From the IMG/VR virus record IMGVR_UViG_3300035208_002115: a DNA stretch of 64,000 bases. One strand, given 5' to 3'. A model generated the notes under the pieces. It did no database searches and had not been told where the DNA came from. It saw nothing but the letters and a program-made list of their open reading frames with translations. This document shows, piece after piece, positions 9,375-36,315 of the stretch. The stretch is from a virus (lineage: Duplodnaviria; Caudoviricetes). Position numbers and translations under genes: made by a program. Position 1 is the stretch's first letter, and each line of letters begins with the position of its first letter.

Positions 9375-9648
9375 TGTTCACTCACCTAAGACTGTCAACG
9401 GCAGCATGAATATTCGATATGCCTACCTTCAATTTAGCGTGTTCACTCACCCTTTGCTATCAAAATGCAATGTATACCCATGATGTGTCTACCTTCAATT
9501 TAGCGTGTTCACTCACCAGTCTAAAGTTTTATACGAATAAAGGTCTCGATGTGTCTACCTTCAATTTAGCGTGTTCACTCACCAAAAGGATAAGTCGATC
9601 AGCATCCCTACCGATGTGTCTACCTTCAATTTAGCGTGTTCACTCACC
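9375..9648 (-). CRISPR. CRISPR-like array 1: four full 36-bp repeats, one degenerate terminal remnant and four spacers; leader end lies inside ORF 9579-9914
   Basis: + strand repeat GATGTGTCTACCTTCAATTTAGCGTGTTCACTCACC at 9482, 9548 and 9613 (exact) and 9416 (2 mismatches); remnant TGTTCACTCACC ends at 9386; unique spacers of 29, 30, 30 and 29 bp; degeneration toward the left implies minus-strand orientation. Confidence 0.85.
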
Positions 9649-9914
9649 ATACTACTAACTAATTTATTAATATTCAAATCATTAAGATGATATTTTTCTT
9701 CTAAAATTTGATGTATTTTAGAGAAAGAATAATATAAAATGTATTTTTTTAAATCATAATTAAAATAAACAATATTATTTTTCTTACCAATTAAATAATC
9801 AGAATCATTTTCAGAAACATACCATTCTGTATCCTTAATGATATTCCAAAGGAAGTATTTTGGACTTCTGGCTTCCTGAATCTTTTGTATTATATCTAAA
9901 GTATCTTCTTCCAT
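9579..9914 (-). CDS. Small protein whose C-terminus is encoded by repeat 1 and spacer 1 of array 1; paralog of 34398-34808
   Basis: Starts 3 nt after the DnaJ-domain gene; LDIIQKIQEARSPKYFLWNIIK matches LELAQKIIESRSPKYFVYNIIK. Confidence 0.75.
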   Translation of the reverse strand: MEEDTLDIIQKIQEARSPKYFLWNIIKDTEWYVSENDSDYLIGKKNNIVYFNYDLKKYILYYSFSKIHQILEEKYHLNDLNINKLVSSMVSEHAKLKVDTSVGMLIDLSFW

Positions 9915-9917
9915 TCT

Positions 9918-10493
9918 TTATGAGAGATATGCCATACATTTGTTTTTAGCCTCGGTTAGCTCAATGAATTTATCTCTGTTACCACCTTTGTCTGGGTGGT
10001 GAACCATTGATAATTTGCGGTATGCCCCTTTAACATCTTCTAATGTAGCATCAGTTTCTAACCCAAGAACTTGAAAACTGGATGATGGTTTTTGTTTTGA
10101 AAACAATGAATGTAAAAAGAATCCAAATATCCAAGAATCTTCTTCTTTTTCCATGCGTTCCCAATCTTCTTTTCTTTTTTTCCAATCTTCTTTTTCCTGT
10201 CGTTGTCGCTCCATTACTTCAGGAAACAATTCTTCCCGTAATTTAGCTATCACAGAAGCGAAAAAATATTTCCAGAGTTTTTCAGGTAATTGACCAGCCG
10301 TTTTTTTATCTATGCCATCCCATTTCATTCGAATAGCATTGACAGCGTTATTATAACCTTTAATATTACCTCGTGCATTACCCACTTCTAAAAGTGTAAT
10401 AAAATCCATTGTCAAGTCTGAAATGAATTCATTATGACTGAAGTTTACACCTTTATCAAGGTTATATTTTTTAATGTAATCGAGTGGTTTCAT
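9918..10493 (-). CDS. DnaJ (J-domain) protein
   Basis: C-terminal FQVLGL...AYRKLSMVHHPDKGG...F.ELTEA with the HPD motif. Confidence 0.85.
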   Translation of the reverse strand: MKPLDYIKKYNLDKGVNFSHNEFISDLTMDFITLLEVGNARGNIKGYNNAVNAIRMKWDGIDKKTAGQLPEKLWKYFFASVIAKLREELFPEVMERQRQEKEDWKKRKEDWERMEKEEDSWIFGFFLHSLFSKQKPSSSFQVLGLETDATLEDVKGAYRKLSMVHHPDKGGNRDKFIELTEAKNKCMAYLS

Positions 10494-10494
10494 A

Positions 10495-11346
10495 TTATTC
10501 GTCAGGTAATGTGTTATGTTTAATCATATTAAATATTGGAAAAACAAAAAATGTAAATATTCCACAGAAAACAGTAACTGCATATACTAATACTTCACCG
10601 AGTTTCTGAAAATCTGTTAATTTACCTATTTTATATGTTACAGGATGGGTTGTATCAAGCGATTCAATTTTATTTTTCTTGACATATATCCGAATCTTTA
10701 TTGACCATATTAATAAACAAATATAGATAGGAATCCAATAAATCATTAATATTATAATAGGCAAGTTCATATTATTCTTCGATTAAATCAAATTGCCCGA
10801 TGAAAACAACATATGTGTTTTGAAATAATATTTCAGGTTCACCTTCTCCCATAGAAACATCGACACCTTTATTAGATACTCTATTAAGATATTCTGTCAC
10901 TTCTTCATCAACAGGTATACCCCAAGCTCTTTCACCAATTTCATAATCTTCCCAAACTTTTATAATTTGGAATTGTACTGGTTTTTCGTATTTTTCATCA
11001 TGTTCCCAGTTGCTCATCCCAGTCCCACCGAACTTATTATGAAAGGAAAAGCTTTTAAAGTTATAAATTTGTCCTACTATCATATATTTGGTTTTTATTA
11101 ATCAAAAATACATTCGTGCATCACAAAAGTGATAACATCATTAAGAGTTTCCTTAGACCACCAAAATATTCTTGCACCGTTGGTTGGAAAATGTTCCTTT
11201 TGATAATTCAATTTCGCTTCTGCATCTTTTTTAGAAGATGCAAGCTGTATACCAGTTACTTTCATTTCGGTTGGCATATCCCAAAACGCTTGCTGTAATT
11301 CTTCTAAAGAATCATACTCATTTAAGTCTATATGTAATTTCTTCAT
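10495..11346 (-). other. Three small hypothetical CDSs (10495-10770 membrane, 10772-11083, 11098-11346)
   Basis: Tightly packed co-oriented ORFs. Confidence 0.55.
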
Positions 11347-11354
11347 AATTCGTT

Positions 11355-11609
11355 TTAAAAAATTTCATCAAGTTTAGCTTTGCGTTCTTCTCGCTTTAAT
11401 TCTTCTCTTGTTTTTTTATTATTATCAAAAGAATTCATACTATTAGTAATATCAAACATGATATTATAATCAATAGGATGAAATTTTTTACCACAATTAT
11501 CACAAAATAAATCTTCTGGAATATCAACTTGAAATAATCCATCATGTATTCTGACATTACAATTATTAAATATTTTTTCTTTCATAAAAAAATATAATTT
11601 AATTGACAA
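11355..11609 (-). CDS. Small CxxC protein with C-terminal RxxKLxxI tag
   Basis: CDNCG; ends ERKAKLDEIF; the real start is probably the internal MKEK. Confidence 0.55.
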   Translation of the reverse strand: MSIKLYFFMKEKIFNNCNVRIHDGLFQVDIPEDLFCDNCGKKFHPIDYNIMFDITNSMNSFDNNKKTREELKREERKAKLDEIF

Positions 11610-11648
11610 AAATAATCATTAAATCTAATAAAAAAAATTACAAAGTAT

Positions 11649-11676
11649 AAACTAAACCCGAAATATATAATATATA
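11649..11676 (+). promoter_or_regulatory. AAAC-N18-TATA bipartite promoter-like motif (1 of 7 copies seen)
   Basis: Same spacing at 11649, 28597, 48500, 48992, 50430, 53965 and 62048, each just upstream of a + strand gene. Confidence 0.55.
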
Positions 11677-11696
11677 AACAAAAAAATTAAACAAAA

Positions 11697-11990
11697 ATGT
11701 TAAAGACCTGTTTAAATTTGATATTAGAACATAAAAAGCTTACTGAATATCATTCCAAAATTCATACACTTGTATATCAGTTTGGTGACGAACAGCTCGC
11801 TTATATGTTGCAAAGGGGAGCAGTAATAGACCAGAATTCTTCTATTATGTTGAATTTTATACCAAATGTTGGATTTAGGTGTACAAATCTAAATAATTCA
11901 AGAATTGGTAAACTTCCAATATGTGGACAACTGGAAGAATTATTAAACACTAAATATCTGGAACTTGTAATTCCAAAAAAAGATGAATAA
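11697..11990 (+). CDS. Hypothetical protein
   Basis: 97-aa ORF. Confidence 0.55.
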   Translation: MLKTCLNLILEHKKLTEYHSKIHTLVYQFGDEQLAYMLQRGAVIDQNSSIMLNFIPNVGFRCTNLNNSRIGKLPICGQLEELLNTKYLELVIPKKDE

Positions 11991-12019
11991 TATTCATCTT
12001 TCAAAAATAAAATTATTTA

Positions 12020-12568
12020 ATGATTCTACCAATATACACCTATGGCGAACCAATACTTATACAACAACCAAGAACAATCGATTTAATAAATGAAAAAAAT
12101 TATATACAAGACTTAATAAGAAATATGTTTGAAACCCTTAATGCAGCCAAGGGTGTAGGACTGGCTGCTCATCAGGTTGGTGTTCCTATAAAATTATTTA
12201 TTGTTGATACTACTGATGGACTTGGTGAAGATATGTTTTTTGGGTTCAAAGAAGTATTTATAAATCCAATTATAATAGAAAGAAGTGATAGTAAAACCAC
12301 TGCAACTGAAGGTTGTTTAAGTTTCCCAAATTTGATGGATGATGTGTTTCGACCTGATAAAATATGTATTGATTATTTAAATGCTAACTTTGAACATAAA
12401 ATTGTCGATTATGAGGGAATTATAGCCAGAATTATACAACATGAATATGACCATATATTTGGAACATTGTTTATAAAACGTTTTGATGTCAAATCTTTAA
12501 AGAAAATAAATAAAACTTTAACTGACATTGAGAATAAAAGAATAAAGACAAATTATAAAATTATTTAA
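12020..12568 (+). CDS. def: Peptide deformylase
   Basis: GVGLAAHQ, EGCLS and QHEYDH signature motifs. Confidence 0.95.
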   Translation: MILPIYTYGEPILIQQPRTIDLINEKNYIQDLIRNMFETLNAAKGVGLAAHQVGVPIKLFIVDTTDGLGEDMFFGFKEVFINPIIIERSDSKTTATEGCLSFPNLMDDVFRPDKICIDYLNANFEHKIVDYEGIIARIIQHEYDHIFGTLFIKRFDVKSLKKINKTLTDIENKRIKTNYKII

Positions 12569-12578
12569 ATATCTTTTC

Positions 12579-13442
12579 ATGATTGTTAAAAAATATGCTA
12601 TTTATAAAATAGAACAATCTTCATTTGATTCGAATTCTCATATTAATGTGAATAGTTATAATTCTAATGAATTTAACATAAAATTAAATACTTTTCCAAC
12701 ACCTTTTAGTAAAATGGTATTAATAAGAAAATATGACTTATCAATAAAAAACCCAGAAGATAATGTTAAATCAGCATATTTTGACACTGAAATAGATGCT
12801 ATGGAAGCTGTTCGGTTGAATATGCATATGAATCCTATAAATATAAATACATTCGATTCCCATATAACAATTTTACCAGTTTTAGAGGAAGTCACTGAAT
12901 TACAGGAAATACGGAGATTAAAAATAAAAGGTATATTACAAGATGATTAAAAAGGATGATGTTTTCAGTGTGTGGTGGGATGAAAATAAAGAAAAAATAT
13001 ATGAATCCCATACGGATTTAGAAGCTGTTTCACATATTTCTTTTGTAGCTGGAGCTAAAGCTATGGAGATGTTTATGGAAAAACATTTTGACAATTCAAA
13101 TAATAAGAAGAACTTTGTGAAGAAACATTTTTGGGATTTATTATAAAAATAAAAATATTTTAACGGTAGAATAAGATGGTTAAAAAAGAAGATAACTTAA
13201 CCGAAGTCAAGAAAGTCGAATCAGATATATCTGATGTTAGACTATCGGATGGTGAAATTTCAAAACAAAAAGTTGAAAATGTTGGTGAGGAATTTATGAA
13301 ATGGGCTGAACAATATTGGGCATTAGAAAAGATAATTACAAATGGATTTGGAGATGGAAAAAATGGTGCTGAAAGTTGTCCATATTCATACATTAGAGAA
13401 ATATTTGTTAATAAGATAAATGAACTTTCTTGTGAAAGATAA
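12579..13442 (+). other. Three small hypothetical CDSs (12579-12950 with C-terminal tag, 12943-13146, 13176-13442)
   Basis: Co-oriented ORFs; the first ends IRRLKIKGILQDD. Confidence 0.55.
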
Positions 13443-13468
13443 ATTATAAAAAAAATAAAAAAAAATAT

Positions 13469-13948
13469 ATGAAAACAACAGAAACACACATATTCTTTTT
13501 AAAAGAATGGCTCAGTAATTTTAAATATTGTACCATCATGTCTGGTGGAAATAAATTTAGTAATACTGAACAACTATTCATGTATCATAAAGCTATATTT
13601 TTTGAAGATGAAGATATAGCCGAAAAGATATTAGTAACTCCTGTTCCATATGAAGCTAAAGCATTAGGAAGATTAGTAAAAGGTTATAATGATGAAGATT
13701 GGAATAAAGTTCGTTATGATGTCATGTATCAGTCCAATCTTCTTAAATATATACAAAACGAGGATTTAAAAGAAAAATTATTAGCTACTGGTAATAAGAT
13801 TTTGGTGGAAGTTAATCCACGAGATGCTATATGGGGTATATCTATGGATGAAAACGACCCAGATATATTGGATGAATCAAAATGGAAAGGTCAGAATCTA
13901 CTTGGTAAAGTTTTGATGGATGTCAGAGAAACATTAAAGAAAAAATAA
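13469..13948 (+). CDS. NADAR (YbiA-like) family protein
   Basis: LSNF, TEQLFMYHKA, AKALGRLV, LLATG..ILVEVNPRDAIWGI, GQNLLGKVLMDVR. Confidence 0.92.
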   Translation: MKTTETHIFFLKEWLSNFKYCTIMSGGNKFSNTEQLFMYHKAIFFEDEDIAEKILVTPVPYEAKALGRLVKGYNDEDWNKVRYDVMYQSNLLKYIQNEDLKEKLLATGNKILVEVNPRDAIWGISMDENDPDILDESKWKGQNLLGKVLMDVRETLKKK

Positions 13949-13962
13949 AAATATAATTCGGA

Positions 13963-14184
13963 TTATATTTTTTTGAAAACTGTCCAATCTTGTTCAGTAA
14001 AAATATCATCTAATACCGACCATATTCCTAATATATATTTTTTTTCGGCTTGTGATATTTTTATATAATTGATAATAGCATTTTTCATTTTTTCATGTGC
14101 CTCTATTTCTTCATTAGATGCTATTGGTATACCAATATTATTTTCATTTAATTCAAAATTATCATATTTCTTTAAGTGATTCAT
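13963..14184 (-). CDS. Small protein with capsid-targeting-like N-terminus
   Basis: MNHLKKYDNFELNEN; TAATATATA at 14204-14212. Confidence 0.55.
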   Translation of the reverse strand: MNHLKKYDNFELNENNIGIPIASNEEIEAHEKMKNAIINYIKISQAEKKYILGIWSVLDDIFTEQDWTVFKKI

Positions 14185-14216
14185 GTGGCATCGTTATTTT
14201 TATTATATATTAAATA

Positions 14217-14588
14217 TTAAAGTGTTTTTCTTAAAACTTTCTCTTTTATTTCTGGAATAGATAAGATAAAATTTATAATATTTGTGTTATCTTCGTTGAT
14301 GTTATCTCTAATAACAGAAATAAGTTTATCAGTTATTCCTTTATCTATAATTTTTTTGATACCTACTAAATCGTTTTTTATAAACAAGGACATAAATATT
14401 GATTCCATTAGATATGTTAATATCTTTTTATTCTCAATGAAATAATAAAGTATTTCCACATTTCTAACCCGATATATTATATTATTTAGAATATGAAATT
14501 GGTTATCCGTTAATCCCTTCTCCACATATAATTTTATATTATTTAAATCTTCAAGATACATTACATTTCTAAATAATTCATCTTTCAT
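14217..14588 (-). CDS. Helical-repeat (ankyrin-like) hypothetical protein
   Basis: Repeated NIKLYVEKG / EILYYFIEN / GIKKIIDKG units. Confidence 0.45.
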   Translation of the reverse strand: MKDELFRNVMYLEDLNNIKLYVEKGLTDNQFHILNNIIYRVRNVEILYYFIENKKILTYLMESIFMSLFIKNDLVGIKKIIDKGITDKLISVIRDNINEDNTNIINFILSIPEIKEKVLRKTL

Positions 14589-14603
14589 CTTTATATTTTT
14601 ATT

Positions 14604-17600
14604 TTAATAGGTAGTTCCACTATTATTTATATCGCTACTATATTCCTCAACAATCCATAGACTACCATCATCATCTATAATATAATATCCTTGGTTAGTT
14701 CCGATTCTTGGGTAATATTTATAACGGAAATTATTATTAATTAAATAATAATTTTTTGGTTCATCAAAGTTGAACAACTCTGTGTTTCTATATCCAACAC
14801 CATAATCGCCATAATATGCAGTTTCAATATAAATATACGGGTCTATATTTTTATCAATATTAAAATTAAAAGGTTCAAGGTCGGTTTTAAATACTTTAAA
14901 ATACTGAACTGGTACTAATTTACCATTACTATCTTTAGAAAATGTTTTAACTATTAATTCAAAATGGTCTGGAACAAATCCAGTGGTTGTATAAAAATGT
15001 ATTGAAAATAAATAGTTCGTGCTAAAGTTCAATGTTGTTATGTAATTGAAATTAATAACAATTCCAGTTTTTTCAGTCCTAAATTTTGTCACTTGATTAG
15101 AAGTATCATGGACTAAATAATTTGTAGCTGGTATTTTAGCAGAACCAGTAATATCTACAATATTAGTTGAAAGAGGTATGATGTTTTCCCTTAACCACAA
15201 TTTTAATTTTTGAAGTTTTATTTGAACTTCTTTCAATGAATATACATTTATATTGTAACCATCTTCATCAGTAATTTTATATGTTAAATTAAAAAGATTT
15301 GTTTTAACATAATTATTTCTATTTCCTTTATTACTTATAAAATCTACCTCATTCCATCCATCTATTGTAGTATCAAAAATATCGGGTATATGTATTCTCA
15401 TATATTTCTTATAAAATGGTGAACTTGAATTTACATTTTTATAATATTCATATACAGATAAATCATTATATCCAAAGAAATTAATAGCACCCATAAGAGA
15501 TTTGTATGCACCAATATAATTATAAATCTTAGGATACATAAGTAACATTTCTTTTCTCTTTTGATTTAATAAAGTATAATCTATTCCATCTTCTTCTATA
15601 TCCGATTCTTTGAATATCATTTCTTCTTCTTTATTAATTCGGATACCCAAATTTTTTAAATTTATATCGAATCTTTCATCTTCTACCTCAGTCTCACCAT
15701 ATATAGAAAACCGTGCTATCTCTTTTGGTTGAACCGAAATAGAAAAATTAAAAGTTTTGCCAGACGAATTGAAATAAACAAAATCACTTTCAGTATTTGT
15801 GATATCAACAATTAACTTATTTTTCAGAACACTCACAAGTGTGTATGTTTCATAATTTTCAAAAATTGATTGGTCATATGGATTTGTATCAGAAATTTTA
15901 ACTTGAATAGGTTGACCTACTTCAAACCCCTTATTAATAAACCCATCAAATAAATTAGATTTATATTCAATAGTACCATCCGTGTTAAAAACAAAATAAT
16001 TATCTGATATACCAGTTGTACCACTAAATATGATGGTTTCAATTAACTCAATCTTCATTATATTATAATTGACTCCTTCATTTGGAGTATTATATCCAAT
16101 AAATATTTCAAACGGCCTTGGTAAATAATTAAAATCGTCATCTGAATCTAACTGTGGTAATAGAAAATTTAGTTCAGAAAATATAGTTTGTTGATATTTT
16201 GGATTTGTTATATGTTCCAATTTTGTGTTAGGTTCTTTATTTAATCTAATAACATTTTGTTGTCTATAATCCCAAAGCGGTATTTGACCATCATATCGTA
16301 ATTTTTCAATATAATTTCCAGATGAATCTTTTGGTGGTTGTAATTGATTTCCTGAAATATCGTAGAAAAATATAGAATCATCAATTGGATGTTCATCAGT
16401 TGGTATCCAAGATAATTTAAAATAAATATCTTTATCATAAGACAACCTCGGTTTACGTATATATTCTCTTGAATCTATATCCAGAATAATATTATTTTCT
16501 TCAAAAAACACACCCTGATATGATAATTGTATGACTGTCGGTGACAACCCAATAATATTATATTCTTTATCATTTTCATTATATGAACTTCCTGAAACAC
16601 TTATCACCATACCAGTTGATAAACCAACTGTATATAAATCAGTAGTACCTGCCATATCCAATTGGTTACCAGTTAAAATTATTCCTTCGCTTCGAAATTC
16701 ATTTTCTGCTTGGTATAATATATCATAAGATGAATTTAAATTTACTTTCACCTTTAAATTTAGTATGGCAACATCAGGGTATAATGTCTCAATATATAAC
16801 TTATTATCAATAGTAGTACCAGTATGAATATCAACCCCTTTATTATATAATGCGGTGTAATATTTATTTACAAAATCTTTAATAGTTTCCTGTGTTTTGT
16901 TAGTAGTACCAGAATTATCTTGGAAATTGATAAAATATTCAACATCATTTAAAGTTAGACAGAAACCATAATCCAGTACATCATCATACAAGTCAAAAAG
17001 AATTTCTTCATTATATTTTTTTGATAATTTATTAGTTTCATATAAATATATTTTTTCATTGTATAATTTTTCTTCTGTAAAAATATAATGGATATCAGAA
17101 ATATCTAAAACTGAATAAGAATTCTGGTTGGATATTGTGCTTACAGTTGTTCCACTTTCTTCTAAATATAATTTTGTTGTAAAATACGGTGAATAAGAAA
17201 AATCATATAATCCTTCTATAAACAATTTATCATCCAATAAATATGAATTGATACCCAATTTATTTAAATCGTTGTTATAATTTTCGACAAATGCGTTTAT
17301 AGTTTCATGATATATTGTAAAACCCGATGCTGCTGGTAAAATGTTTTGTTTATAATTTAAAATATTTGTTGTTAAATAACAATTTCCATCAATGGTTTGG
17401 GTCTGAGCTATACCAGTGGCATCAAATGTATTATATTCATAAAATCTTAAACGTTTAACAATAGCCATATTCGTGATGTTTTCTTCGTGTACAAATTGTT
17501 CCAATTGTATATAAGTGTACCCATCTTCTATATAAGAATTTAAAACTTTAAAGTCTTTTCTTGTGTTTAAAGAACCTGCCCCAGCAAAATAAATAATATC

Positions 17601-18608
17601 ATTTGCAACTAATGGTACATTAAGTGTTGATGTTGACCTAACATAATATTCAGATTCATCTGATAAATTCTCATCATAATATTCATAAAATTCTAAGGCC
17701 ATTGCAGTTTTTACCGACACACGGTCATTTATACTACTAACTGTATATTGATAACCGTTCAATAATTGTCCACCGTTATAATCTTCAAATATGATGTTTT
17801 GTCCTATTTTAAAAGAATTACCGAATGGCTCACTAAATACAAATTTATTTCCAGTTACAGTGACAGAACCACTGTGTAATAATATTCTATCGGTTAATAA
17901 TGTTACTTCAAGATTTAAGGTACAATTTGTATTACCAGATAATTGATAATCATAAATATTTCTTTTTAAAATTTCACGGTCAGCAACTTCTACTACACCA
18001 GAATTTTTTTCTGAATTTACAATCGATAATTGTTTACCTACATATATTTTTGAAGCGAGATATGCACTATATCCTTGATTGTAATCTGGGTATTTTATTA
18101 CATCACAACTATAAATTTTTCCTGATATATAAGTAAATGATAAAAAAGTGTCGTTTGTTGTCGTTGTTTGAATTAAAATTTCATTTTTTCTCGTTTCCAA
18201 TACATTAAAATATAATGCATCATCGAAATCTGTGTAGTTTGCACCGCTTAATACAAAACGAACAATTGTTCCCTCTGGAAATAATTGATGAAAGCCTCTA
18301 CCCTTTATCCATTTAGTTCTAAAGACTGGAGAATTGTTTGATTTTTTAATACCTTCTATATCCAGTCCCTGTTTTGTTGAACCTTTTAATATAATTCCAC
18401 TATCATTATACAATTCGAATTTATTAAAATTAAAATATTCAGCAAATGATATGGGTTCTACATGTTCAAACAAATAGATACCAATGGTTTTATATAAATC
18501 GCTACTATTTGGGTCGAATAATATTTTACCTTCCCATTTATCATTTTCTTCGTTATATTGAAAGTTATATGGATAACCCTCTTTGTTGTAAAATCTGAGA
18601 TTCTTCAC
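14604..18608 (-). CDS. Large putative virion structural protein (baseplate or tail)
   Basis: 1334 aa, beta-rich and acidic with SG/SGTT motifs; TAATATATA at 18644-18652; no specific homolog recognised. Confidence 0.5.
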   Translation of the reverse strand: MKNLRFYNKEGYPYNFQYNEENDKWEGKILFDPNSSDLYKTIGIYLFEHVEPISFAEYFNFNKFELYNDSGIILKGSTKQGLDIEGIKKSNNSPVFRTKWIKGRGFHQLFPEGTIVRFVLSGANYTDFDDALYFNVLETRKNEILIQTTTTNDTFLSFTYISGKIYSCDVIKYPDYNQGYSAYLASKIYVGKQLSIVNSEKNSGVVEVADREILKRNIYDYQLSGNTNCTLNLEVTLLTDRILLHSGSVTVTGNKFVFSEPFGNSFKIGQNIIFEDYNGGQLLNGYQYTVSSINDRVSVKTAMALEFYEYYDENLSDESEYYVRSTSTLNVPLVANDIIYFAGAGSLNTRKDFKVLNSYIEDGYTYIQLEQFVHEENITNMAIVKRLRFYEYNTFDATGIAQTQTIDGNCYLTTNILNYKQNILPAASGFTIYHETINAFVENYNNDLNKLGINSYLLDDKLFIEGLYDFSYSPYFTTKLYLEESGTTVSTISNQNSYSVLDISDIHYIFTEEKLYNEKIYLYETNKLSKKYNEEILFDLYDDVLDYGFCLTLNDVEYFINFQDNSGTTNKTQETIKDFVNKYYTALYNKGVDIHTGTTIDNKLYIETLYPDVAILNLKVKVNLNSSYDILYQAENEFRSEGIILTGNQLDMAGTTDLYTVGLSTGMVISVSGSSYNENDKEYNIIGLSPTVIQLSYQGVFFEENNIILDIDSREYIRKPRLSYDKDIYFKLSWIPTDEHPIDDSIFFYDISGNQLQPPKDSSGNYIEKLRYDGQIPLWDYRQQNVIRLNKEPNTKLEHITNPKYQQTIFSELNFLLPQLDSDDDFNYLPRPFEIFIGYNTPNEGVNYNIMKIELIETIIFSGTTGISDNYFVFNTDGTIEYKSNLFDGFINKGFEVGQPIQVKISDTNPYDQSIFENYETYTLVSVLKNKLIVDITNTESDFVYFNSSGKTFNFSISVQPKEIARFSIYGETEVEDERFDINLKNLGIRINKEEEMIFKESDIEEDGIDYTLLNQKRKEMLLMYPKIYNYIGAYKSLMGAINFFGYNDLSVYEYYKNVNSSSPFYKKYMRIHIPDIFDTTIDGWNEVDFISNKGNRNNYVKTNLFNLTYKITDEDGYNINVYSLKEVQIKLQKLKLWLRENIIPLSTNIVDITGSAKIPATNYLVHDTSNQVTKFRTEKTGIVINFNYITTLNFSTNYLFSIHFYTTTGFVPDHFELIVKTFSKDSNGKLVPVQYFKVFKTDLEPFNFNIDKNIDPYIYIETAYYGDYGVGYRNTELFNFDEPKNYYLINNNFRYKYYPRIGTNQGYYIIDDDGSLWIVEEYSSDINNSGTTY

Positions 18609-18691
18609 TAAGTATGAAAGTATTATTTTTTTAGAATTTCTATTATATATTAAAAAATATACTTCTAAAAATAAATTATTACATTTGGGGT

Positions 18692-21158: not shown

Positions 21159-21160
21159 TA

Positions 21161-22684: not shown

Positions 22685-22816
22685 ATTGTATAATTTATAC
22701 TACAAAATAACCAATATTTTATTAGATAAAAAAATCCTGATTATACATTATATATTATTTTTTAATAAAAAAGTATCATGGTTTTGGAAATATGCTATTT
22801 TTTTTGTAATTTTATT

Positions 22817-23138: not shown

Positions 23139-23148
23139 TTCACTATGA

Positions 23149-24766: not shown

Positions 24767-24774
24767 ATAATCAT

Positions 24775-26697: not shown

Positions 26698-26707
26698 CAT
26701 AATCAAA

Positions 26708-27320: not shown

Positions 27321-27336
27321 TAAATTTTTAGTATAT

Positions 27337-27375
27337 AATTATGTTTGGGACACTAAAAGTTACCCAAACATAATT
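27337..27375. terminator. 13-bp stem-loop, possible terminator or operator
   Basis: AATTATGTTTGGG-N13-CCCAAACATAATT; the left arm contains TATGTTTG (TAnnTTTG). Confidence 0.55.
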
Positions 27376-27408
27376 TATTATACTTTAGATTAACATAAAA
27401 AATATTTA

Positions 27409-27714
27409 ATGTGTTATTCTGGTAAGTGTATATGGGAAACTTATGAGGGAGATTGTGGGTATCCACTATCTAATTACAGATTTTTAAAAATATTTCCCAA
27501 GACACTTTGTTATACTGGTGAAGATGGTGAAGGTTCATATTATGTTAATAAAGTTAAGATAGCAGTTGATTGTTGGAAACAAATTTGTCGTCTTAAAATA
27601 ACCCAGATAACAGAACAAGAAATTATAATCAAACAAGCTGAAAGAAAATTAAAACTACTAAATATATTCTCAGATGAGCAAAATGACAATCGAACTTCAA
27701 GAAGAAATAAATAA
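27409..27714 (+). CDS. Small Cys-rich protein with C-terminal tag
   Basis: MCYSGKCIWE...GDC; ERKLKLLNIF. Confidence 0.55.
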   Translation: MCYSGKCIWETYEGDCGYPLSNYRFLKIFPKTLCYTGEDGEGSYYVNKVKIAVDCWKQICRLKITQITEQEIIIKQAERKLKLLNIFSDEQNDNRTSRRNK

Positions 27715-28582: not shown

Positions 28583-28656
28583 GTATAAATTTTTTCAAAC
28601 ATTTAAACGGATTTTAACTATAATAATTTTATTCTAAAAATTAAAAACGGAAACAA

Positions 28657-29013
28657 ATGGAAGATTTAAAAGAACAAACGGAACAATTGACTGGAGCGTT
28701 TTTTGCTTCATTAAAACGCAATAACAAACAAATACGGGATGACCGGGCGCTTGCTATTGTGGAAGATACTCAAATGATTTACAAGCGTAAAATTGAGGAT
28801 TTGGAAACGGAGTTGAAAAGGATGAGAAGGGAACTCGAAAACATGCTTGACCTTTCTCCAACAAATGCACAATCACTTATTATAGCAAGTGATTTTAAGA
28901 GTATCGAATTTGTTGATAAAGACCTTGAATTGGGTTTAAAGATTCGCAATACCGAAATTATGTTGGAAATTTCAAAAAAAAGGTATGAATTTTTATTTGG
29001 AGGGAATGAATAA
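28657..29013 (+). CDS. Hypothetical coiled-coil protein, first gene of the vWA/PurA-like operon
   Basis: 118 aa; stop overlaps the vWA start (TAATG). Confidence 0.65.
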   Translation: MEDLKEQTEQLTGAFFASLKRNNKQIRDDRALAIVEDTQMIYKRKIEDLETELKRMRRELENMLDLSPTNAQSLIIASDFKSIEFVDKDLELGLKIRNTEIMLEISKKRYEFLFGGNE

Positions 29014-29912
29014 TGGGTGGTGGTAATTATTCCTTACATTCTCGTTCAGTAAGGGCTGCTGATTTAGGCTATAAGACTAAATCAACTCATGAGATTTTCA
29101 AACAGCGTTCCATTAATAATGCAATGAATCCATTTGGAGTCGCTATTAGAGAATCGAGAGATTCTAACGAACACCCAAATTCAGTATCAATTATACTGGG
29201 TTTAGATGTTACAGGTTCTATGGGGTCTGTCCCACATTTTCTTGTAAAAGAAGGATTACCCAATATAATGGAAAAAATTATCGCTGGTGGTATAGCTGAC
29301 CCACAGGTACTTTTTCTTGCCATTGGAGACCACGAAGAAGATAATTCACCCTTACAGGTGGCTCAATTTGAATCAAGTGATGAATTACTTGATAAATGGT
29401 TAACTGATGTATATCTTGAAGGTGGTGGTGGTGGTAACGAAGGTGAAAGTTATTTACTTGCATGGTATTTTGCTGCATATCATACTTCAATTGATTGTTT
29501 TGAAAAGAGAAACAACAAAGGATTTATATTCACTATCGGTGACGAACCAACTTTAAAGAATTTACCCAAAAATGCTGTTAAAGACATGATGGGTGAAGGA
29601 CAATATAGTGATTACACATCTGATTCTCTTTTAGAAAAAGCTTGTGAAAAATATCATGTTTATCACTTACATATAAAACAAACAAATGCAGGTGGCCGAC
29701 AAGAGACTATTAATGGTTGGAAACAACTTATGGGTGATAAACTCATTATTGTTGAAAATAAGAATGATGTAGCAAATATTATTGCTGAAACTATTTTGAA
29801 AGTTCAAAAAAGTGAAAAACCTAAAGTTAAAGAACAGGATTATACACCAAGTTCATCTGATTCAATCATTGTTTCTGACACAACTGAGTTTAGTCCAAGT
29901 GATATGTTATAA
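29013..29912 (+). CDS. vWA-domain protein
   Basis: LDVTGSM MIDAS-like motif, GGGGNEGESY, FTIGDE. Confidence 0.85.
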   Translation: MGGGNYSLHSRSVRAADLGYKTKSTHEIFKQRSINNAMNPFGVAIRESRDSNEHPNSVSIILGLDVTGSMGSVPHFLVKEGLPNIMEKIIAGGIADPQVLFLAIGDHEEDNSPLQVAQFESSDELLDKWLTDVYLEGGGGGNEGESYLLAWYFAAYHTSIDCFEKRNNKGFIFTIGDEPTLKNLPKNAVKDMMGEGQYSDYTSDSLLEKACEKYHVYHLHIKQTNAGGRQETINGWKQLMGDKLIIVENKNDVANIIAETILKVQKSEKPKVKEQDYTPSSSDSIIVSDTTEFSPSDML

Positions 29913-29924
29913 AACAATTATTTA

Positions 29925-32333
29925 ATGAATAAAGCTGTTTTGGGCATTGGGTATGGGGATGAAGGTAAGGGTATAACAACCGATTACCTCTGTCCCCTTT
30001 CTTTTAATCCAATGGTAGTGAGATTTTCAGGTGGTCAGCAAGCTGGTCATTGTCAAGTAGGTGATACACTTATTACCACAATTAATGGTTTATTTTATAT
30101 TAAAGATTTAGTAGGTGAAAAAACAAATGTTAATTCGTCTTTTGATGTCATTAATATGAATTTAGAATCTGAAAAAACATCCTTATTGTATAAAGAAAAA
30201 AATAAAAAGGTTAATAAAATACTTCTTTCCAATGGTGTCGAATTTGGGTGTACTTCTTCACATAAATATTTCGTATGGAATTCTATTAATATGTCATGTG
30301 AGTGGGTTGAAAGTGTGTATTTGAATAAAAATATACATCAATTTATTTTCCCAAAAAAATATGATAATTATATAGGTAATGATTTATTTGATTTATCTAA
30401 TATTGATAATACAACAGATTTTATTCATAATAAAGTTAAAATTAACATTAAAAAAATAGATATATATGATATATCGGAGTTAATGGGTCTTGTTAATGGT
30501 GATGGTATGTTTACTAAAAAGGGTTTACAAATTATTTTTAATAAAAAACAAAAAGATGTATTAGAAACAGTTGTTAATTCCTTAAAAAACATGGGGATAA
30601 ATTATACAATTAAACCACATAAATGCAAATCTTGTTTAATATTATATATATGGTCTACTGATTTTTTGAATATTCTTTTAAAATTGGGTTGCTTTTTTAA
30701 AAAAGGTGTAGAAAAAAGAACACCCACTTTTGTGTTAAATGGTACAAAAAAAATAATTAAATCATATTTAAGAGGTCTTTTTGATACCGATGGGTGTGTT
30801 AGTTTTCACAAAAAAAAACAAAATATATATGGAAGAATAAAATTTAGTAACACATCTGAAATTTTAATTCGAGAAATGCAACAAATGTTATATTTAATTG
30901 GAATACATTCCCATGTATCAATATATAAAAATAAAAAAAAGAAACGATTAACTGTATTTAATATAGAAATATCTTCTATTGAAGATATTATAAAATTTTC
31001 AGAAAGAATAGGATTTATTTCTAAATATAATAATAATAAATTAGATAAATTAATAGAATTAAAACAAAATAAAAACCCAAACCTTAATGGTGTTGTATTA
31101 AAAGTAAATTCAAATTTCAAAAAAAACTTCCTTAAAATATTAAATAAAAAGGGAAGAAATAATAACAATATTAGAACAAATTTCATTCTAAATAATAAAT
31201 CAAAAATACAAGAAGAATATAATTATCTGATAGAACTTTTAGAAACATATAATTTAATAAATATTAAAGAAATAGTATTAAATGACAGAATTGAAAATGT
31301 CTACGATATAACAATGCCAAACACACATAGTTATATTTCAAATGGTACTATATCCCACAACACCGTTATTTTAAATGATATCAGACACGTATTTTCAAAT
31401 TTTGGTTCTGGTACATTACGTGAAATCCCAAGTTATTGGGCGAAATACTGCACCGTTGACCCAGTTGGTCTAATAAATGAATTAGATATTTTAATTGAAA
31501 AAGGTGTTCAGCCTTTATTATACATTGATGAAAGGTGTCCTATAACAACACCATTTGATATATTTTATAATCATGAATCCGAAAAAACCAATAATCATGG
31601 TAGCGTTGGGGTTGGTGTTGGTGCTACAATAAATAGAGAAGAAAAATTTTATTCTTTACAATTTGGTGATTTATTTTATGAACCAGTGATGAGAATAAAA
31701 TTAAATGAAATAAAAAAATTCTATAATTTAAATTTTGAAATTAATTTAGATAGATTTTTTCAAAGTATAGAAAGAATCATATCTTCTAAAAATATAAAAC
31801 CTGTGTATGATTTTCCATTTAGTGAAAATTATATTTTTGAAGGTTCTCAGGGATTATTATTAGACCCAAATATTGGGTTTTTCCCTCATGTCACAAGAAG
31901 TTATGTTAGTACTAAAAATATAATAGATGCTGGATTTAAACCTGAATTATATTTAGTTACAAGAGCTTATCAAACCAGACATGGTAATGGGGCTATGATT
32001 GGTGAAAACATTCCACATAATATTTTAGTGAACCCAAATGAAACTAATGTGATGCACCCACACCAAGGTGAATTTAGACGGGCATTACTTAATTTAGATT
32101 TATTAACATATAGTGTTAATAAAGACCCGTATATTCGTTTTTGTTTGAACAAAACTCTTGTAATAACATGTCTTGACCATATTGTAAATGATTATAGATT
32201 TACTTATAAGAATGAAATAATAACATCCTCAAATGAAAATAGTTTCATTCAAAAAGTAAGCAAAATATTAGATATAAAGAATGTTTTAATTAGTAAATCA
32301 GATGAATCGAAAAATATAATAAAATGGAACTAA
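29925..32333 (+). CDS. purA: Adenylosuccinate synthetase-like protein containing an intein
   Basis: GDEGKG, RFSGGQQAGH|TV, FGSG, HGSVGVG, FEGSQG.LLD, FPHVTRS, TRHGNG. Confidence 0.85.
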   Translation: MNKAVLGIGYGDEGKGITTDYLCPLSFNPMVVRFSGGQQAGHCQVGDTLITTINGLFYIKDLVGEKTNVNSSFDVINMNLESEKTSLLYKEKNKKVNKILLSNGVEFGCTSSHKYFVWNSINMSCEWVESVYLNKNIHQFIFPKKYDNYIGNDLFDLSNIDNTTDFIHNKVKINIKKIDIYDISELMGLVNGDGMFTKKGLQIIFNKKQKDVLETVVNSLKNMGINYTIKPHKCKSCLILYIWSTDFLNILLKLGCFFKKGVEKRTPTFVLNGTKKIIKSYLRGLFDTDGCVSFHKKKQNIYGRIKFSNTSEILIREMQQMLYLIGIHSHVSIYKNKKKKRLTVFNIEISSIEDIIKFSERIGFISKYNNNKLDKLIELKQNKNPNLNGVVLKVNSNFKKNFLKILNKKGRNNNNIRTNFILNNKSKIQEEYNYLIELLETYNLINIKEIVLNDRIENVYDITMPNTHSYISNGTISHNTVILNDIRHVFSNFGSGTLREIPSYWAKYCTVDPVGLINELDILIEKGVQPLLYIDERCPITTPFDIFYNHESEKTNNHGSVGVGVGATINREEKFYSLQFGDLFYEPVMRIKLNEIKKFYNLNFEINLDRFFQSIERIISSKNIKPVYDFPFSENYIFEGSQGLLLDPNIGFFPHVTRSYVSTKNIIDAGFKPELYLVTRAYQTRHGNGAMIGENIPHNILVNPNETNVMHPHQGEFRRALLNLDLLTYSVNKDPYIRFCLNKTLVITCLDHIVNDYRFTYKNEIITSSNENSFIQKVSKILDIKNVLISKSDESKNIIKWN
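30051..31361 (+). mobile_element. Intein with LAGLIDADG homing endonuclease (437 aa)
   Basis: Starts CQVGDTLI, block B TSSH, LMGLVNGDG and YLRGLFDTDG, block F VYDITM, ends ISHN followed by Thr; removal restores QAGH-TV. Confidence 0.93.
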
Positions 32334-32542
32334 ATTGTATTTATAAAATTATCGCCTCAGAAGATGGTGATTGGCACATAGCCTCTAAATTAGTAGATGG
32401 TAATATAACTGTATTACGTGAAGGACATGACCAAGAACGGTGTTATAAAGCTATATTAGATGATTTGGGTGTTGATGTTAAAACTTCATATGTAAATATG
32501 GGAGATGGTGATTATGAGGTAACAAAAGCTGATTTTGAATAA
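32324..32542 (+). CDS. Hypothetical protein
   Basis: 72-aa ORF. Confidence 0.55.
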   Translation: MELNCIYKIIASEDGDWHIASKLVDGNITVLREGHDQERCYKAILDDLGVDVKTSYVNMGDGDYEVTKADFE

Positions 32543-32581
32543 TGGAAGACTATATTTATAATCAAAAAATAAAAATAAAAA

Positions 32582-33061
32582 ATGTATATAGGTGTTGATT
32601 TTGATGGTACATGTGTAACCCACGAATACCCAAATGTGGGAAAAGATATTGGAGCAGTACCAATTTTAAAAAAATTAGTTGAAGCTGGACACAAATTAAT
32701 ATTGTTTACTATGCGTAGTGATGTTGATAATGTTCCAATTGCTGATAATGAAATAAAATTAGTTGATAATTTTTTGACAGATACTGTGAATATGTTTAAT
32801 GAAAGAAAATTAGTTGGTAATTTTTTGACAGATGCTGTGAATTGGTTTAAAGAAAATAATATTGAGTTGTGTGGTATTAATGAAAATCCAACACAAAAAT
32901 ATTGGACAACAAGCCCAAAAGCATATGCACAATTGTATATTGATGATGCAGCACTTGGGTGTCCTCTCACATATGATGTCAATTTATCTGATAGATATTT
33001 TGTTGATTGGAAAGAAATTGAAAAAAATCTTAAAATACGTGGATTAATAAATATGATGTAA
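32582..33061 (+). CDS. HAD-superfamily hydrolase-like protein with an internal 17-aa duplication
   Basis: VDFDGT, FTMR, K...YIDD; 51-nt tandem duplication at 32747-32848. Confidence 0.8.
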   Translation: MYIGVDFDGTCVTHEYPNVGKDIGAVPILKKLVEAGHKLILFTMRSDVDNVPIADNEIKLVDNFLTDTVNMFNERKLVGNFLTDAVNWFKENNIELCGINENPTQKYWTTSPKAYAQLYIDDAALGCPLTYDVNLSDRYFVDWKEIEKNLKIRGLINMM

Positions 33062-33073
33062 ATTGAACATAAT

Positions 33074-34395
33074 ATGTTTGAAAGATTTATAAAAAGAATG
33101 AGTAAAGATGTTTTTAAAATTGAAGAAATTATTTACTTCAATAGACCATATAAAATTAAAGGGTTTGACTCTATTAAAGAGGCTGATAACTGGCTAAGTG
33201 ATTATAATAAACCGATGAATCTGGTTCTAATGGGTAAAGTATCAGAAATAACTGAGGAAGAAGCTGAAGATTATATGGTATGTAGTGATGCTGGTTATAT
33301 TTACAGTTTACAAAGTCCTTATTATGGTAAAGCATCAAGGGCTTTGAAAGATGCTATTAGAAAAAAATATTGTGTTGTTTATATATGATAATATTATGGG
33401 ATACTTCATTACCGAGAGACGAAATGAATCTGGTGAGACTGTAAATGCAGATTGTTTTTTAACCGATTCTATGGACAAAGTTAAAGAATGGATAAGTAAT
33501 AATAAAGATTTTGATACTCGTGATATTTTTTGGTACTGGACTATATTAAAAATAACAACAGATGATGAACTTGGAGCAGAACTATTTACATATTTTGATT
33601 GGGATGGTAATGAACAGGATAAAAAACCAAGTAAATTAGATATTGGAAAAGATATTTTTAGTTGTTTTTCAGAAGAAAAATTCATCTTTAATGTCTGTAT
33701 GAGTTACCGTCACGATTTTGGATTACTATCATATGATGAACAAGAACTGCTTAAATTCGAATGTAAAGAATGGATGAGGGCTATAAAAAATAATTATAAA
33801 TTATGAATACAACAAATAAAACTAATAAAACCTCAAAGAGAGGTTCAATTATTGAAATATATTTGGAAATATTTATGAGAAACCAAATGTATACTATAAA
33901 TGATAATTTAAAAGAAGATATTCAATGTTTATTGGATAAAAAATTATCATTTAAAACAACCGTTTCTGAAATAAATAATGAAAACGGGTTTTTAAGTGGT
34001 GATGTAATATTTAAAAGTGAATACGGGGATAACAGAGCTATAAATTTTACTGTTAAATCTGGTGAAATTGAATATGCATGAAATTAGAAACTCTTGTAAC
34101 AAGATATAAAAACCTTGGTTATATCCCAAAAGGTTTAGAACGAGATTTAGAGATAGCATCTATTATTAAATGGATATATGAGACCCATGATATCTATATC
34201 GATGTTTTCTTTTGCGATATTAAATTTAAAGGGTACGAAAATAACTATAATAAATTCTGTGGATATAAAATCTGGAACACCAAAGAGGAATTTAGTAATA
34301 AACACACTGGTGATAAGTATTTTAAAAATCCATTTGATGCTAAATATGATGTAGTTAGAGAAATATATAGAGCTTTAAAATTTCAAAAATATTAA
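33074..34395 (+). other. Four hypothetical CDSs (33074-33388, 33351-33806, 33803-34081, 34078-34395)
   Basis: Tightly packed co-oriented ORFs. Confidence 0.55.
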
Positions 34396-34397
34396 TA

Positions 34398-34808
34398 ATG
34401 GATAATTTAGAACTTGCACAAAAAATAATTGAGAGTAGAAGTCCTAAGTATTTCGTTTACAATATTATAAAAAAGTCTGATGTTATACCGTCTCCCAGAA
34501 GTAAGAGTAAGTTTAATTATTATATCTTTGATGATGAAATCATGCTTAAAATGGGACGGTTAAAAGATGAACATAACCCAGAATTATTTTGGGTTGAAAT
34601 TCAAAAAACATTATTTATTGATTTAGAGGTTAAATTTAAATTAACTATTGAACAAAGTAAAGATATAATACGTACTGTTGTTAGTGATTATTTTAATATA
34701 ACAAGGGATGAGATTCAATTTTCAGAACATACATTTATTGATAATATCTCGACAACATTAATGAAAAAATATGTCGCTGAAAAATATAAATCGATGAAAA
34801 ATGGCTAA
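34398..34808 (+). CDS. Paralog of the array-1-fused protein, without its own array
   Basis: QKIIESRSPKYFVYNIIK and LEVKFKL...IIRTVVSDYFNI align with ORF 9579-9914. Confidence 0.65.
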   Translation: MDNLELAQKIIESRSPKYFVYNIIKKSDVIPSPRSKSKFNYYIFDDEIMLKMGRLKDEHNPELFWVEIQKTLFIDLEVKFKLTIEQSKDIIRTVVSDYFNITRDEIQFSEHTFIDNISTTLMKKYVAEKYKSMKNG

Positions 34809-35799
34809 AGTTTTTATAATTGGAAATAGCACATTTGGGTATAAAGAATTGTTCGACTTAAATAAATCATTAGACGAATCGGGTAAATATTATTTTGATT
34901 ATCTCATACCATTTATAAAAAAATATAAAAAAGAAAATGATTGCCTGATTCATCTTGGTAATGTGTTCAATAGAAATGAAAATATTAATGTAAAAACTAT
35001 TAATCAGGCCGTTTCAGTATTCGAGAGATTATCAGAATTATTACCAGTTTTCATATTACTATCTAAACATGATACATATGGCACATTAAATGTCCTCACT
35101 GTACTTAAAAATATAAAGAATGTTTATATCGTAGACAAATCAGCTACTTTATATGATAATAAAATACAATTATATGGTTATCATAAAGATATAATTGAAG
35201 AAATTAAAAATAAAAATATTTTTTTAAATCATTTTAATAAGATTTTAGAGCCTGTTGAGAACCTTGAACATTATTCTGAAAGTGAATTTTTATTTGTAAA
35301 TAATGAAATATATGGCCTTAATTTAAATATAGACTTTAAAATAATTTATTCTGGCGTTAAAGATGAAACTAAAGGCAATAATAAATGTATCGAATCCCCA
35401 TACCCATTAAATTTTAATTCCAAAAATAATGGTATTTGGGTGTTAGATGTGGAGTCTGGACAAGAAAAATTCATTCCAAATGGAATTAATTCTAAATTTG
35501 AGATAAAAAATATCACTTCTATTGGTGATTTGAAAATACTAACCGAAGAATATCTTAATAATAATTTTGTAGATTTAAATATAAATTTCGAACTTTCGGA
35601 AAATTTAGAATTTCAAATGAAATTATCACAGTTGAACGTGAAGTCGATTCATTATACTAAACAAGACATCATTGAAGAACAATTTGAAGAAGAAAAAACT
35701 TACGATATATTTGATTTAGATGCTATTATAACTGATAATATTAATTCAGACACAGTGAAAAATGAATTTGATAATGTCAAACGCATTTATAGTAAATAA
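34801..35799 (+). CDS. SbcD/Mre11 (T4 gp47)-like metallophosphoesterase with degenerate metal ligands
   Basis: IIGNSTFG in place of DxH, HLGNVFNR in place of GDxFD, LSKHD in place of GNHD; IESPY, IPN..SKF. Confidence 0.65.
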   Translation: MAKVFIIGNSTFGYKELFDLNKSLDESGKYYFDYLIPFIKKYKKENDCLIHLGNVFNRNENINVKTINQAVSVFERLSELLPVFILLSKHDTYGTLNVLTVLKNIKNVYIVDKSATLYDNKIQLYGYHKDIIEEIKNKNIFLNHFNKILEPVENLEHYSESEFLFVNNEIYGLNLNIDFKIIYSGVKDETKGNNKCIESPYPLNFNSKNNGIWVLDVESGQEKFIPNGINSKFEIKNITSIGDLKILTEEYLNNNFVDLNINFELSENLEFQMKLSQLNVKSIHYTKQDIIEEQFEEEKTYDIFDLDAIITDNINSDTVKNEFDNVKRIYSK

Positions 35800-35810
35800 T
35801 GGACGGAATT

Positions 35811-36109
35811 GTTGGGTATATCTTTCAAATTGTGACTTGGTACACTGAGAAGATAGTTGAGAAGCTTGATTATTCCGTTGGGTATACCTTTCAAATTATG
35901 ACTTGGTACACTATTTATTCGCACTTGAATTATCCTGAGTTAGTTGGGTATACCTTTCAAATTATGACTTGGTACACTAAACCAACTCTTTGGCTTTTGG
36001 TCTTTCCTGTTGGGTATACCTTTCAAATTATGACTTGGTACACTAAATCTGGATTCGTTGTTTTTGTTTACCTGTTGGGTATACCTTTCAAATTATGACT
36101 TGGTACACT
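35811..36109 (-). CRISPR. CRISPR array 2: five 36-bp repeats and four spacers (30, 30, 30, 29 bp)
   Basis: + strand repeat GTTGGGTATACCTTTCAAATTATGACTTGGTACACT at 35877, 35943, 36009 and 36074; copy at 35811 has 2 mismatches (trailer); adjacent to a Cas12f-like gene. Confidence 0.95.
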
Positions 36110-36119
36110 ATACCATAAT

Positions 36120-36315
36120 TTAAATCACTCAATTTAAGGTATTTAGTGAGTGTATTAGTGGAAAAAAAGTATGTAATTTTTAAAATTTTACTTTCAAAAA
36201 TCCAATTTTTGCTTTCCTGACCTCACTATCTGGTTTTAATCCCTGCGCTCACCATACATTTTAGTGAGTGTATATAGCAGTTCATTTACTGGACTTACGT
36301 CCAACCCAATAAACC
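36120..36315 (-). ncRNA. Candidate tracrRNA / leader region
   Basis: Minus-strand UGGAC-GUAA-GUCCA GNRA hairpin (36290-36303), CUCACUA/UGGUGAG hairpin, UUGGGU complementary to the repeat 3' ACCCAA, and AUACCUUAAAUU complementary to repeat AAUUUGAAAGGUAU with a 2-nt bulge; boundaries approximate. Confidence 0.55.

Follow-up and report, generated by a model that had tools for sequence, protein, structure and literature searches.

The window analysed here, a stretch of 64,000 nucleotides, forms bases 477370–541369 of a 675,678-bp virus record (IMGVR_UViG_3300035208_002115; 98% complete by CheckV) and contains two CRISPR arrays. Array 1 is the continuation of a small conserved gene, which reads in frame into it. 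Array 2, some 26 kb away, adjoins a gene for the miniature nuclease Cas12f and the region predicted to encode its trans-activating CRISPR RNA (tracrRNA). Both are genuine CRISPR arrays with repeats of a single superfamily, to which a third array, outside the window and next to a gene for IscB, also belongs. We somewhat favour the view that these arrays share their adaptation step and have separate effectors, array 2 serving Cas12f and array 1 being part of a dispersed cassette whose RNAs would be at best poor guides for that enzyme. Two things are new here: within one phage, the arrays of Cas12f, of IscB and of the cassette all belong to a single repeat superfamily, and a concrete pairing rule separates cognate from non-cognate arrays.

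Repeats and adaptation of the three arrays

The positions of the features discussed are collected in Table 1. The intact repeats of array 1 start at 9416, 9482, 9548 and 9613, with spacers of 29, 30, 30 and 29 nt, and a fifth copy at 9351–9386 has decayed so far that only 12 nt are kept. In array 2 the repeats start at 35811, 35877, 35943, 36009 and 36074, with spacers of 30, 30, 30 and 29 nt; the copy at 35811 has two mismatches. These coordinates bear out the description given in an earlier sequence-only reading of the window, of 36-bp repeats and 29–30-bp spacers in both arrays. The same is true of its statement that the arrays point the same way: the decayed repeat lies at the low-coordinate end of both, and they therefore have the same polarity, with growth at the high-coordinate end. 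For array 1 the growth end is position 9648, beside the small gene.

Table 1. Features of the window discussed in the text, with positions numbered from the first nucleotide of the window.
Feature	Position	Strand	Description
Array 1 (R1 type)	9351..9648	-	four intact 36-nt repeats plus decayed terminal copy; four spacers
Small conserved gene fused to array 1	9579..9914	-	111 aa; reads in frame into the array
Array-less gene with cassette-like N-terminus	34398..34808	+	27 aa of the N-terminus are 59% identical to the small gene
Array 2 (R2 type)	35811..36109	-	five 36-nt repeats, four spacers; adjoins cas12f
tracrRNA region	36111..36326	-	216-nt structured gap from cas12f stop to first repeat; putative boundaries
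Long anti-repeat, partner in the long repeat:anti-repeat duplex (LR/AR)	36111..36144	-	3' end of the tracrRNA region; includes segment 36126–36141
Candidate short anti-repeat, partner in the short repeat:anti-repeat duplex (SR/AR)	36304..36309	-	tracrRNA positions 18–23; complementary to the last bases of the array 2 repeat
cas12f	36327..37592	-	421 aa from ATG; open frame runs to 37667

In a global alignment the repeats of arrays 1 and 2 score a z of 4.1, and none of 3000 shuffles aligned as well. The likeness is concentrated in the guide-proximal half as read on the minus strand, where the last 13 nt agree at 10 positions, and the shared spacer-proximal half described earlier is thereby confirmed. 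The sequence-only reading also pointed to the ATAC that follows both arrays on the + strand at the leader junction. It is present, yet it is weak evidence, because the gene fused to array 1 dictates it there through its Ser/Gly-Met codons, and sister phages do not conserve it at their Cas12f arrays.

The third array has the same kind of repeat and lies at 130402–130873 of the record (G000 in what follows), just downstream of the gene for an IscB protein of 529 aa with RRXRR and HNH domains. The whole locus (G000 128709–131200, equivalent to 4710–7200 of locus L004) comprises IscB, seven intact repeats with a decayed eighth, and a scaffold RNA, and sits beside 11 tRNA genes. The scaffold RNA, which lies downstream, pairs with the repeat of the IscB array at -18.3 kcal/mol (p 0.024). 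Each of the three repeats resembles the other two (z of 4.1, 4.8 and 5.1, the value for array 1 against IscB being 4.8), so that the Cas12f repeat is no nearer than the IscB repeat to that of array 1. Repeat similarity alone is therefore unsafe ground for inferring a shared effector. What the three arrays have in common is the length of the repeat, the motifs at its ends and in its middle, the length of the spacers and the end at which they grow.

No cas1, cas2 or cas4 gene was found in the 675,678-bp phage genome, and no cas1 in any of five related phage records, namely G000 and four sisters. Of the sisters, G001 is a 421-kb record that is 59% complete, and G004 is a complete genome of 640 kb with direct terminal repeats. 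Because the arrays share the features that an integrase reads, and these phages have no adaptation genes of their own, we infer that the integrase comes from the host. It would recognise the 36-nt repeat, its GTTG-type far end and the middle motif, would insert spacers of 29–30 nt, and would add them at the same end in each case, so that one enzyme would load all three arrays in trans.

The spacers also bear on this point. A total of 89 spacers from the five records were searched against those same five records. A cassette spacer of G001 and a spacer of its Cas12f array both match the same tail-fibre gene (with a Peptidase_S74 domain) of a rival phage fragment, G002, at sites only 93 bp apart; the chance of such proximity is about 0.015 for a target of 19.6 kb. 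Taken with the common repeat traits and the lack of Cas1, this makes a shared host integrase the probable source of the spacers, and the likelier half of the sequence-only proposal, which had offered either a common integrase or a common Cas12f and tracrRNA.

Two observations weigh against a common integrase of this kind. A scan of 185,579 species genomes, made with one cassette-type repeat, revealed neither a host Cas1-Cas2 nor a host array with such repeats. In addition, the motifs flanking the protospacers (described below) differ in both side and sequence between the array types, which sits badly with a single acquisition motif.

Predicted pairing at the Cas12f locus

The Cas12f protein carries the RuvC D, E and D residues and a zinc ribbon, as read from motifs in the translation. 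It matches the Pfam families Cas12f1-like_TNB (6.5e-15) and OrfB_IS605, and its best matches in the PDB are Cas12f chains, down to 2.6e-34. The ortholog in G001 is 93% identical. A third ortholog, on a 233-kb contig, is 39% identical and has the same layout, with a 151-nt tracrRNA region and ten repeats; the nearest relatives outside the clade are just 33–39% identical. The layout is that of type V-F: array 2 adjoins cas12f and is co-oriented with it, 217 nt past its stop codon, and this organisation is repeated at the two orthologous loci. Within the window's genome this Cas12f is the sole intact CRISPR-linked type V nuclease, the other open reading frame with a TNB domain encoding 370 aa and having no array adjoining it. 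The window's genome has two matches to the TNB domain (TnpB/Cas12f-like), compared with nine in each of G001 and G004. The third ortholog's array differs at its old end between two samples, with ten repeats in one (L101 11415–12044) and seven in the other (L103 11415–11846).

The region between cas12f and array 2 is 95% identical to its counterpart in G001, the differences being concentrated in the final 45 nt or so. It matches no Rfam family and is single-copy, no second tracrRNA copy being found in the window's genome. Scans for promoters and terminators gave signals that were not above those of shuffled sequences. The repeat of array 2 folds on itself into a hairpin (-9.1 kcal/mol, z -3.6), and the 5' arm of this hairpin mimics the anti-repeat (window 35811–36109 compared with L003 5490–5856). 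The repeat of the 93% ortholog in G001 has a quite different 5' half. The repeat of array 1 is unstructured when folded alone.

Published Cas12f guides combine a long repeat:anti-repeat stem with a short stem of 5–7 bp in a pseudoknot, and in AsCas12f1 both duplexes are required, scrambling of either abolishing activity (PMC11246509). Pairing was therefore analysed separately for the two duplexes. When the duplex energy of the whole 216-nt tracrRNA region was calculated with each repeat, none was better than shuffles (p 0.28 for array 1), and long interior loops gave noise. The 52-nt end containing the anti-repeat was substituted for it, with 1000 shuffles. The tracrRNA end of the window's phage then pairs with the repeat of array 2 at -15.9 kcal/mol (p 0.006), and that of G001 with its own Cas12f repeat at -19.9 kcal/mol (p 0.009); the non-cognate crosses of these Cas12f repeats and tracrRNA ends are weaker than the cognate pairs. 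With cassette repeats the corresponding figures are -12.7 kcal/mol for array 1 (p 0.10) and -17.3 kcal/mol for G001 and its own cassette repeat (p 0.015), and the G001 end pairs equally well with the cassette repeat of either phage. Since cognate pairs are preferred among the Cas12f repeats, and the G001 tracrRNA is indifferent between cassette repeats, the tracrRNA tracks the Cas12f repeat and not the cassette repeat. In the co-folding comparison that the sequence-only reading had proposed, the energy for array 1 was no better than that of shuffles with either the 52-nt end or the whole region, although the G001 end and its cassette repeat did beat shuffles.

The second comparison concerns the short duplex. 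In all three orthologs the tail of the cognate repeat pairs at 6 of 6 positions with tracrRNA positions 18–23 (or 20–25), with compensatory changes between them. Chance is enough to produce a 6-bp match by itself, and the argument rests on its recurrence at the same position in diverged orthologs. At this site the tail of the array 1 repeat pairs at only 4 of 6 positions, and that of the G001 cassette repeat at 5 of 6, in both cases with an internal mismatch; no run of six or more pairs was found for the cassette repeat tails anywhere in these tracrRNAs.

Array 2 is thus the predicted cognate array of Cas12f, because its repeat pairs with both anti-repeat sites, and both sites co-vary with it across the three orthologs. 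The predicted pattern fits the published architecture of Cas12f guides (PMC11246509). We hypothesise that array 2 is transcribed together with cas12f and the tracrRNA, and that its repeat forms the long and the short duplex that Cas12f guides need. The repeat of array 1 would retain only what is ancestral in the long duplex and would disrupt the short one, and its RNAs would be expected to guide this Cas12f poorly at best.

The cassette, its spacers and its possible effector

Array 1 lies within a minus-strand operon. Residues 1–88 of the small protein form the core of a family; residues 89–101 are encoded by the first repeat and the rest by the first spacer, and the stop codon falls in the second repeat. 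Copies of the gene, 58–69% identical to that of the window, precede every R1-type array in four other phage records, and homology between these cassettes ends at the start codon of the small gene. There are six cassettes in G001, nine or ten in G004, and one in each of two fragments. The protein has no match in Pfam, in PHROG or among PDB folds (fold cut-off E <= 0.001), its predicted structure having a predicted local distance difference test score (pLDDT) of 70.6. No anti-repeat was found inside the small gene of 18 cassettes (z about 0).

Exact scans of viral contigs for the repeats of array 1 and of the IscB array gave nothing outside this clade, and a degenerate cassette-repeat pattern was found in the sister phages only among viral contigs and nowhere in the 185,579 species genomes. 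In G001 the stretch immediately upstream of cas12f (L003 3594–3878) is a degenerate cassette gene with an in-frame stop, a hint that the Cas12f unit may have inserted within or next to a cassette.

G004 is of particular value because it is complete. It has its nine or ten cassettes, yet has neither an ortholog of this Cas12f nor a copy of the tracrRNA, from which it follows that the cassette is independent of this Cas12f; it should be added that the sample in which cassettes and effectors can be seen together contains only two complete genomes. The effectors of G004 are different ones. A Cas9 (TIGR01865, 293 bits) lies beside an 11-repeat array at 284821–288937, and this array belongs to the same repeat superfamily. 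There is also a different type V enzyme of 502 aa with its own array, with which its tracrRNA pairs at -20.7 kcal/mol, and an IscB stub. The type V tracrRNA of G004 was considered as a partner for the cassette repeats of G004, and is not supported (p 0.4–0.5). A further array, of four repeats, is found at 177773–177993, and the end of its repeat may be Cas12a-like. A spacer beside the 502-aa enzyme matches the gene of that same enzyme at 30 of 30 positions, with an ATTA flank (G004 184951–186978), and may reflect auto-targeting or auto-regulation.

The eight spacers of the window have no protospacer in their own genome, in the four sister records or in 50,697 phage records. Across the five records, matches were found for 11 cassette spacers. 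For seven of them the match lies in the genome that carries the spacer (four times without a mismatch, twice with a single mismatch and once with three, at 27/30), and in six of the seven the spacer is the newest of its array. Such self-matching spacers occur in G001, G003 and G004 (for example at G001 256664, 184111 and 338395, and at G004 103343 and 168731). Several cassette spacers match sister phages, the window's phage among them. Most spacers do not match the carrier genome, and this is true even of the complete G004.

The flanks of the protospacers differ between the types of array. On the 5' side, in the sense of a Cas12f guide, ATTA precedes both protospacers of the effector-adjacent arrays (n = 2), one belonging to the G001 Cas12f ortholog (a 27/30 match) and one to the different effector of G004, whereas TTA is found at positions -3 to -1 of none of the 11 cassette protospacers. 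On the leader-distal side the cassette protospacers are A-rich at +2 to +5, with A in 8 of 11 at +2 and again at +4; the pattern is suggestive only, and fits no known arrangement. Seven of the cassette protospacers have the same sense as the genes in which they lie and four are antisense, which gives no clear signature of RNA targeting.

The question is then which effector, if any, uses array 1. The proposal of the sequence-only reading was that array 1 is a second, trans-acting library of guides for the same Cas12f, which would use the tracrRNA beside array 2 to cleave DNA. We consider this possible but unlikely. A number of observations favour it over separate effectors. The first is the pairing that prompted the idea: the segment 36126–36141 (minus strand) does pair with positions 13–28 of the array 1 repeat at 14 of 16 positions, one of them G-U, exactly as counted, and at the anti-repeat site. 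None of 500 shuffles reached 14/16 against this segment, and 46 of 500 (9%) reached it somewhere in the 216-nt tracrRNA region. In G001, which has six cassettes, the energy for the tracrRNA end and the cassette repeat nearly matches that for its own Cas12f repeat. The last 13 nt of the array 1 repeat match the cognate repeat of the third ortholog at 11 positions, and such tails therefore fall within the range used by this Cas12f clade. Array 1 would be transcribed in the sense required for a Cas12f guide, with repeat followed by spacer, and no other intact CRISPR-linked type V nuclease is present in the genome. A remnant of the cassette gene stands beside cas12f in G001, and the cassette arrays of G004, where this Cas12f is missing, are short and have more decayed repeats. 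Finally, the short anti-repeat site is drawn from three sequences with a 6-bp match of a kind that chance alone provides, and the flank motif of the effectors comes from two protospacers, one of them of another effector.

Against these stand the energy of array 1, which does not exceed that of shuffles, and the broken guide-proximal duplex. The tracrRNA changes between the two phages follow the repeat of array 2 and not that of the cassette. The cassettes persist in a complete genome that has no such Cas12f, the TTA flank is missing from all their protospacers, and several of their spacers match their own phage perfectly. We therefore rate a shared Cas12f low: the pairing is partial and inherited, the short duplex is interrupted, the cassette survives where the effector is missing, and its protospacers do not have the same flank motif. 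The 14/16 pairing is the inherited (ancestral) part of the long anti-repeat duplex. Of the original pair of proposals, then, the common integrase is retained, and the common Cas12f and tracrRNA is left weak.

A second alternative is that array 1 has no effector at all, and is a neutral or nearly neutral passenger, produced as a by-product when a borrowed integrase acts on the repeat-like 3' end of a multi-copy gene. This would explain why the first repeat is an in-frame part of a conserved gene, why the array-less paralog (Table 1) has similar residues there, why no cas gene adjoins any cassette, and why the cassette has no anti-repeat in its interior. It is also consistent with the seven of 11 matching spacers that match the carrier genome, mostly as the newest spacer, and with the stability of array 1 itself: its spacers are identical in contigs from two studies, one a landfill run of 2018 and the other a groundwater run of 2022, with no turnover seen between the two samples. 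However, the repeats are uniform inside each array, and the syntenic arrays of the window's phage and G001 have no spacer in common, which together imply that spacers have turned over. The majority of spacers without a match in the carrier genome, the spacers against rival phages (including the tail-fibre gene that the Cas12f array also targets) and the retention of the cassette in at least five phage records are likewise hard to reconcile with a passenger, and we regard this explanation as decidedly unlikely.

It is hardly credible that array 1 feeds IscB (or Cas9 in the sister phages), with its + strand supplying guides in which the spacer precedes the repeat and which pair with an omega RNA or tracrRNA: its repeat resembles that of IscB as much as that of Cas12f, is unstructured in the manner of tracrRNA-dependent repeats, and has a relative at the Cas9 of G004, but the omega-RNA anti-repeat pairs with the + strand of the array 1 repeat at only -11.4 kcal/mol and at a different site (p 0.12, so that this partner is unsupported, its own repeat doing considerably better), no motif is found on the side expected for a target-adjacent motif of Cas9/IscB type, array 1 sits in a minus-strand operon, and no ortholog of IscB was found in the G001 record (59% complete), where an IscB-like match is just 32% identical, with no more than a stub in G004.

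We return to the reading of shared adaptation and separate effectors. Array 1 would be the 3' part of the dispersed cassette of small gene and array, and its effector would lie outside the cassette. This could be a host enzyme, or weak and promiscuous use by Cas12f, or there may be no effector. A wider version of the idea can be formulated for the clade of giant phages as a whole, in which the host writes one spacer library across gene-fused arrays, and any miniature nuclease at hand (Cas12f, IscB, Cas9 or another type V enzyme) reads it; Cas12f would then use array 1 RNAs promiscuously, through the partly conserved anti-repeat pairing and despite the imperfect short duplex. We think this rather improbable.

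If one borrowed integrase does serve unrelated miniature nucleases, then it is the adaptation step and not the effector that sets the architecture of the repeat, and phages could exchange effectors while retaining their spacer libraries. The analysis also leads to a testable rule, that the loading of Cas12f guides should hinge on the 6-bp guide-proximal duplex. Array 1 does not have this duplex, and one compensatory tracrRNA change would reveal whether orphan arrays can be recruited.

The window has 27% G+C and a gene content typical of phage. At 29925–32333 there is a gene resembling adenylosuccinate synthetase, split by an intein with a LAGLIDADG domain, for which a PurZ-like role in base modification is conceivable. 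On the minus strand at 14604–18608 there is an open reading frame of 1334 aa, which has no Pfam family and no sequence match in the PDB.

Comparison with known systems

Huge phages have been described that carry type V-F variants and compact arrays, are missing adaptation genes, and have spacers against rival phages (PMC7162821; PMC8616872). The Cas12f locus resembles the type V-F systems of these phages (Al-Shayeb et al. 2020, PMC7162821): in both, a small nuclease whose RuvC triad is intact precedes a structured tracrRNA region and a compact array, and cas1, cas2 and cas4 are likewise missing. The long and short repeat:anti-repeat duplexes of the type V-F guide (PMC11246509) can be drawn for array 2. 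The differences are that two further arrays of the same superfamily are present here, one at an IscB gene and one in a gene-fused cassette, that the nearest relatives of the protein outside the clade are so distant, and that the tracrRNA is a predicted one.

In its short length, its viral location and the lack of an adjoining cas gene, array 1 resembles the orphan or mini arrays carried by viruses (Faure 2019 and Medvedeva 2019, as reviewed in PMC8616872; Al-Shayeb 2020). The sister arrays of the cassette also carry spacers against related viruses, as such mini arrays do, although the four spacers of array 1 in the window matched nothing. Unlike the mini arrays, array 1 continues the reading frame of a conserved small gene, which stands in the place of the leader; the cassette is multi-copy, many of its spacers match the carrier, and no host repeat matches it among the species genomes scanned. 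The third array follows an RRXRR and HNH protein and runs into a scaffold RNA able to pair with its repeat, as in CRISPR-associated IscB systems such as DelIscB (PMC12660989). As it lies outside the window, it is relevant here only through the common repeat superfamily.

The closest parallel for shared adaptation is found in Flavobacterium columnare, in which a VI-B array without Cas1 is filled by the II-C machinery, and the two arrays have the repeat's leader-distal end in common and are read in opposite directions relative to the growth end (PMC8092290). The present arrays are similar in lacking adaptation genes, in their 36-nt repeats, in the common motif at the leader-distal end and in the polarity of growth. 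Here too the reading directions are opposed, the IscB array being read towards the growth end and the Cas12f array away from it, and the one tail-fibre gene hit by two arrays of G001 would be a counterpart to overlapping protospacer neighbourhoods. The two cases differ in that the arrays described here are on a phage, so that the candidate integrase would be that of the host, and in that the flanks of the two array types are not the same, on the few protospacers available.

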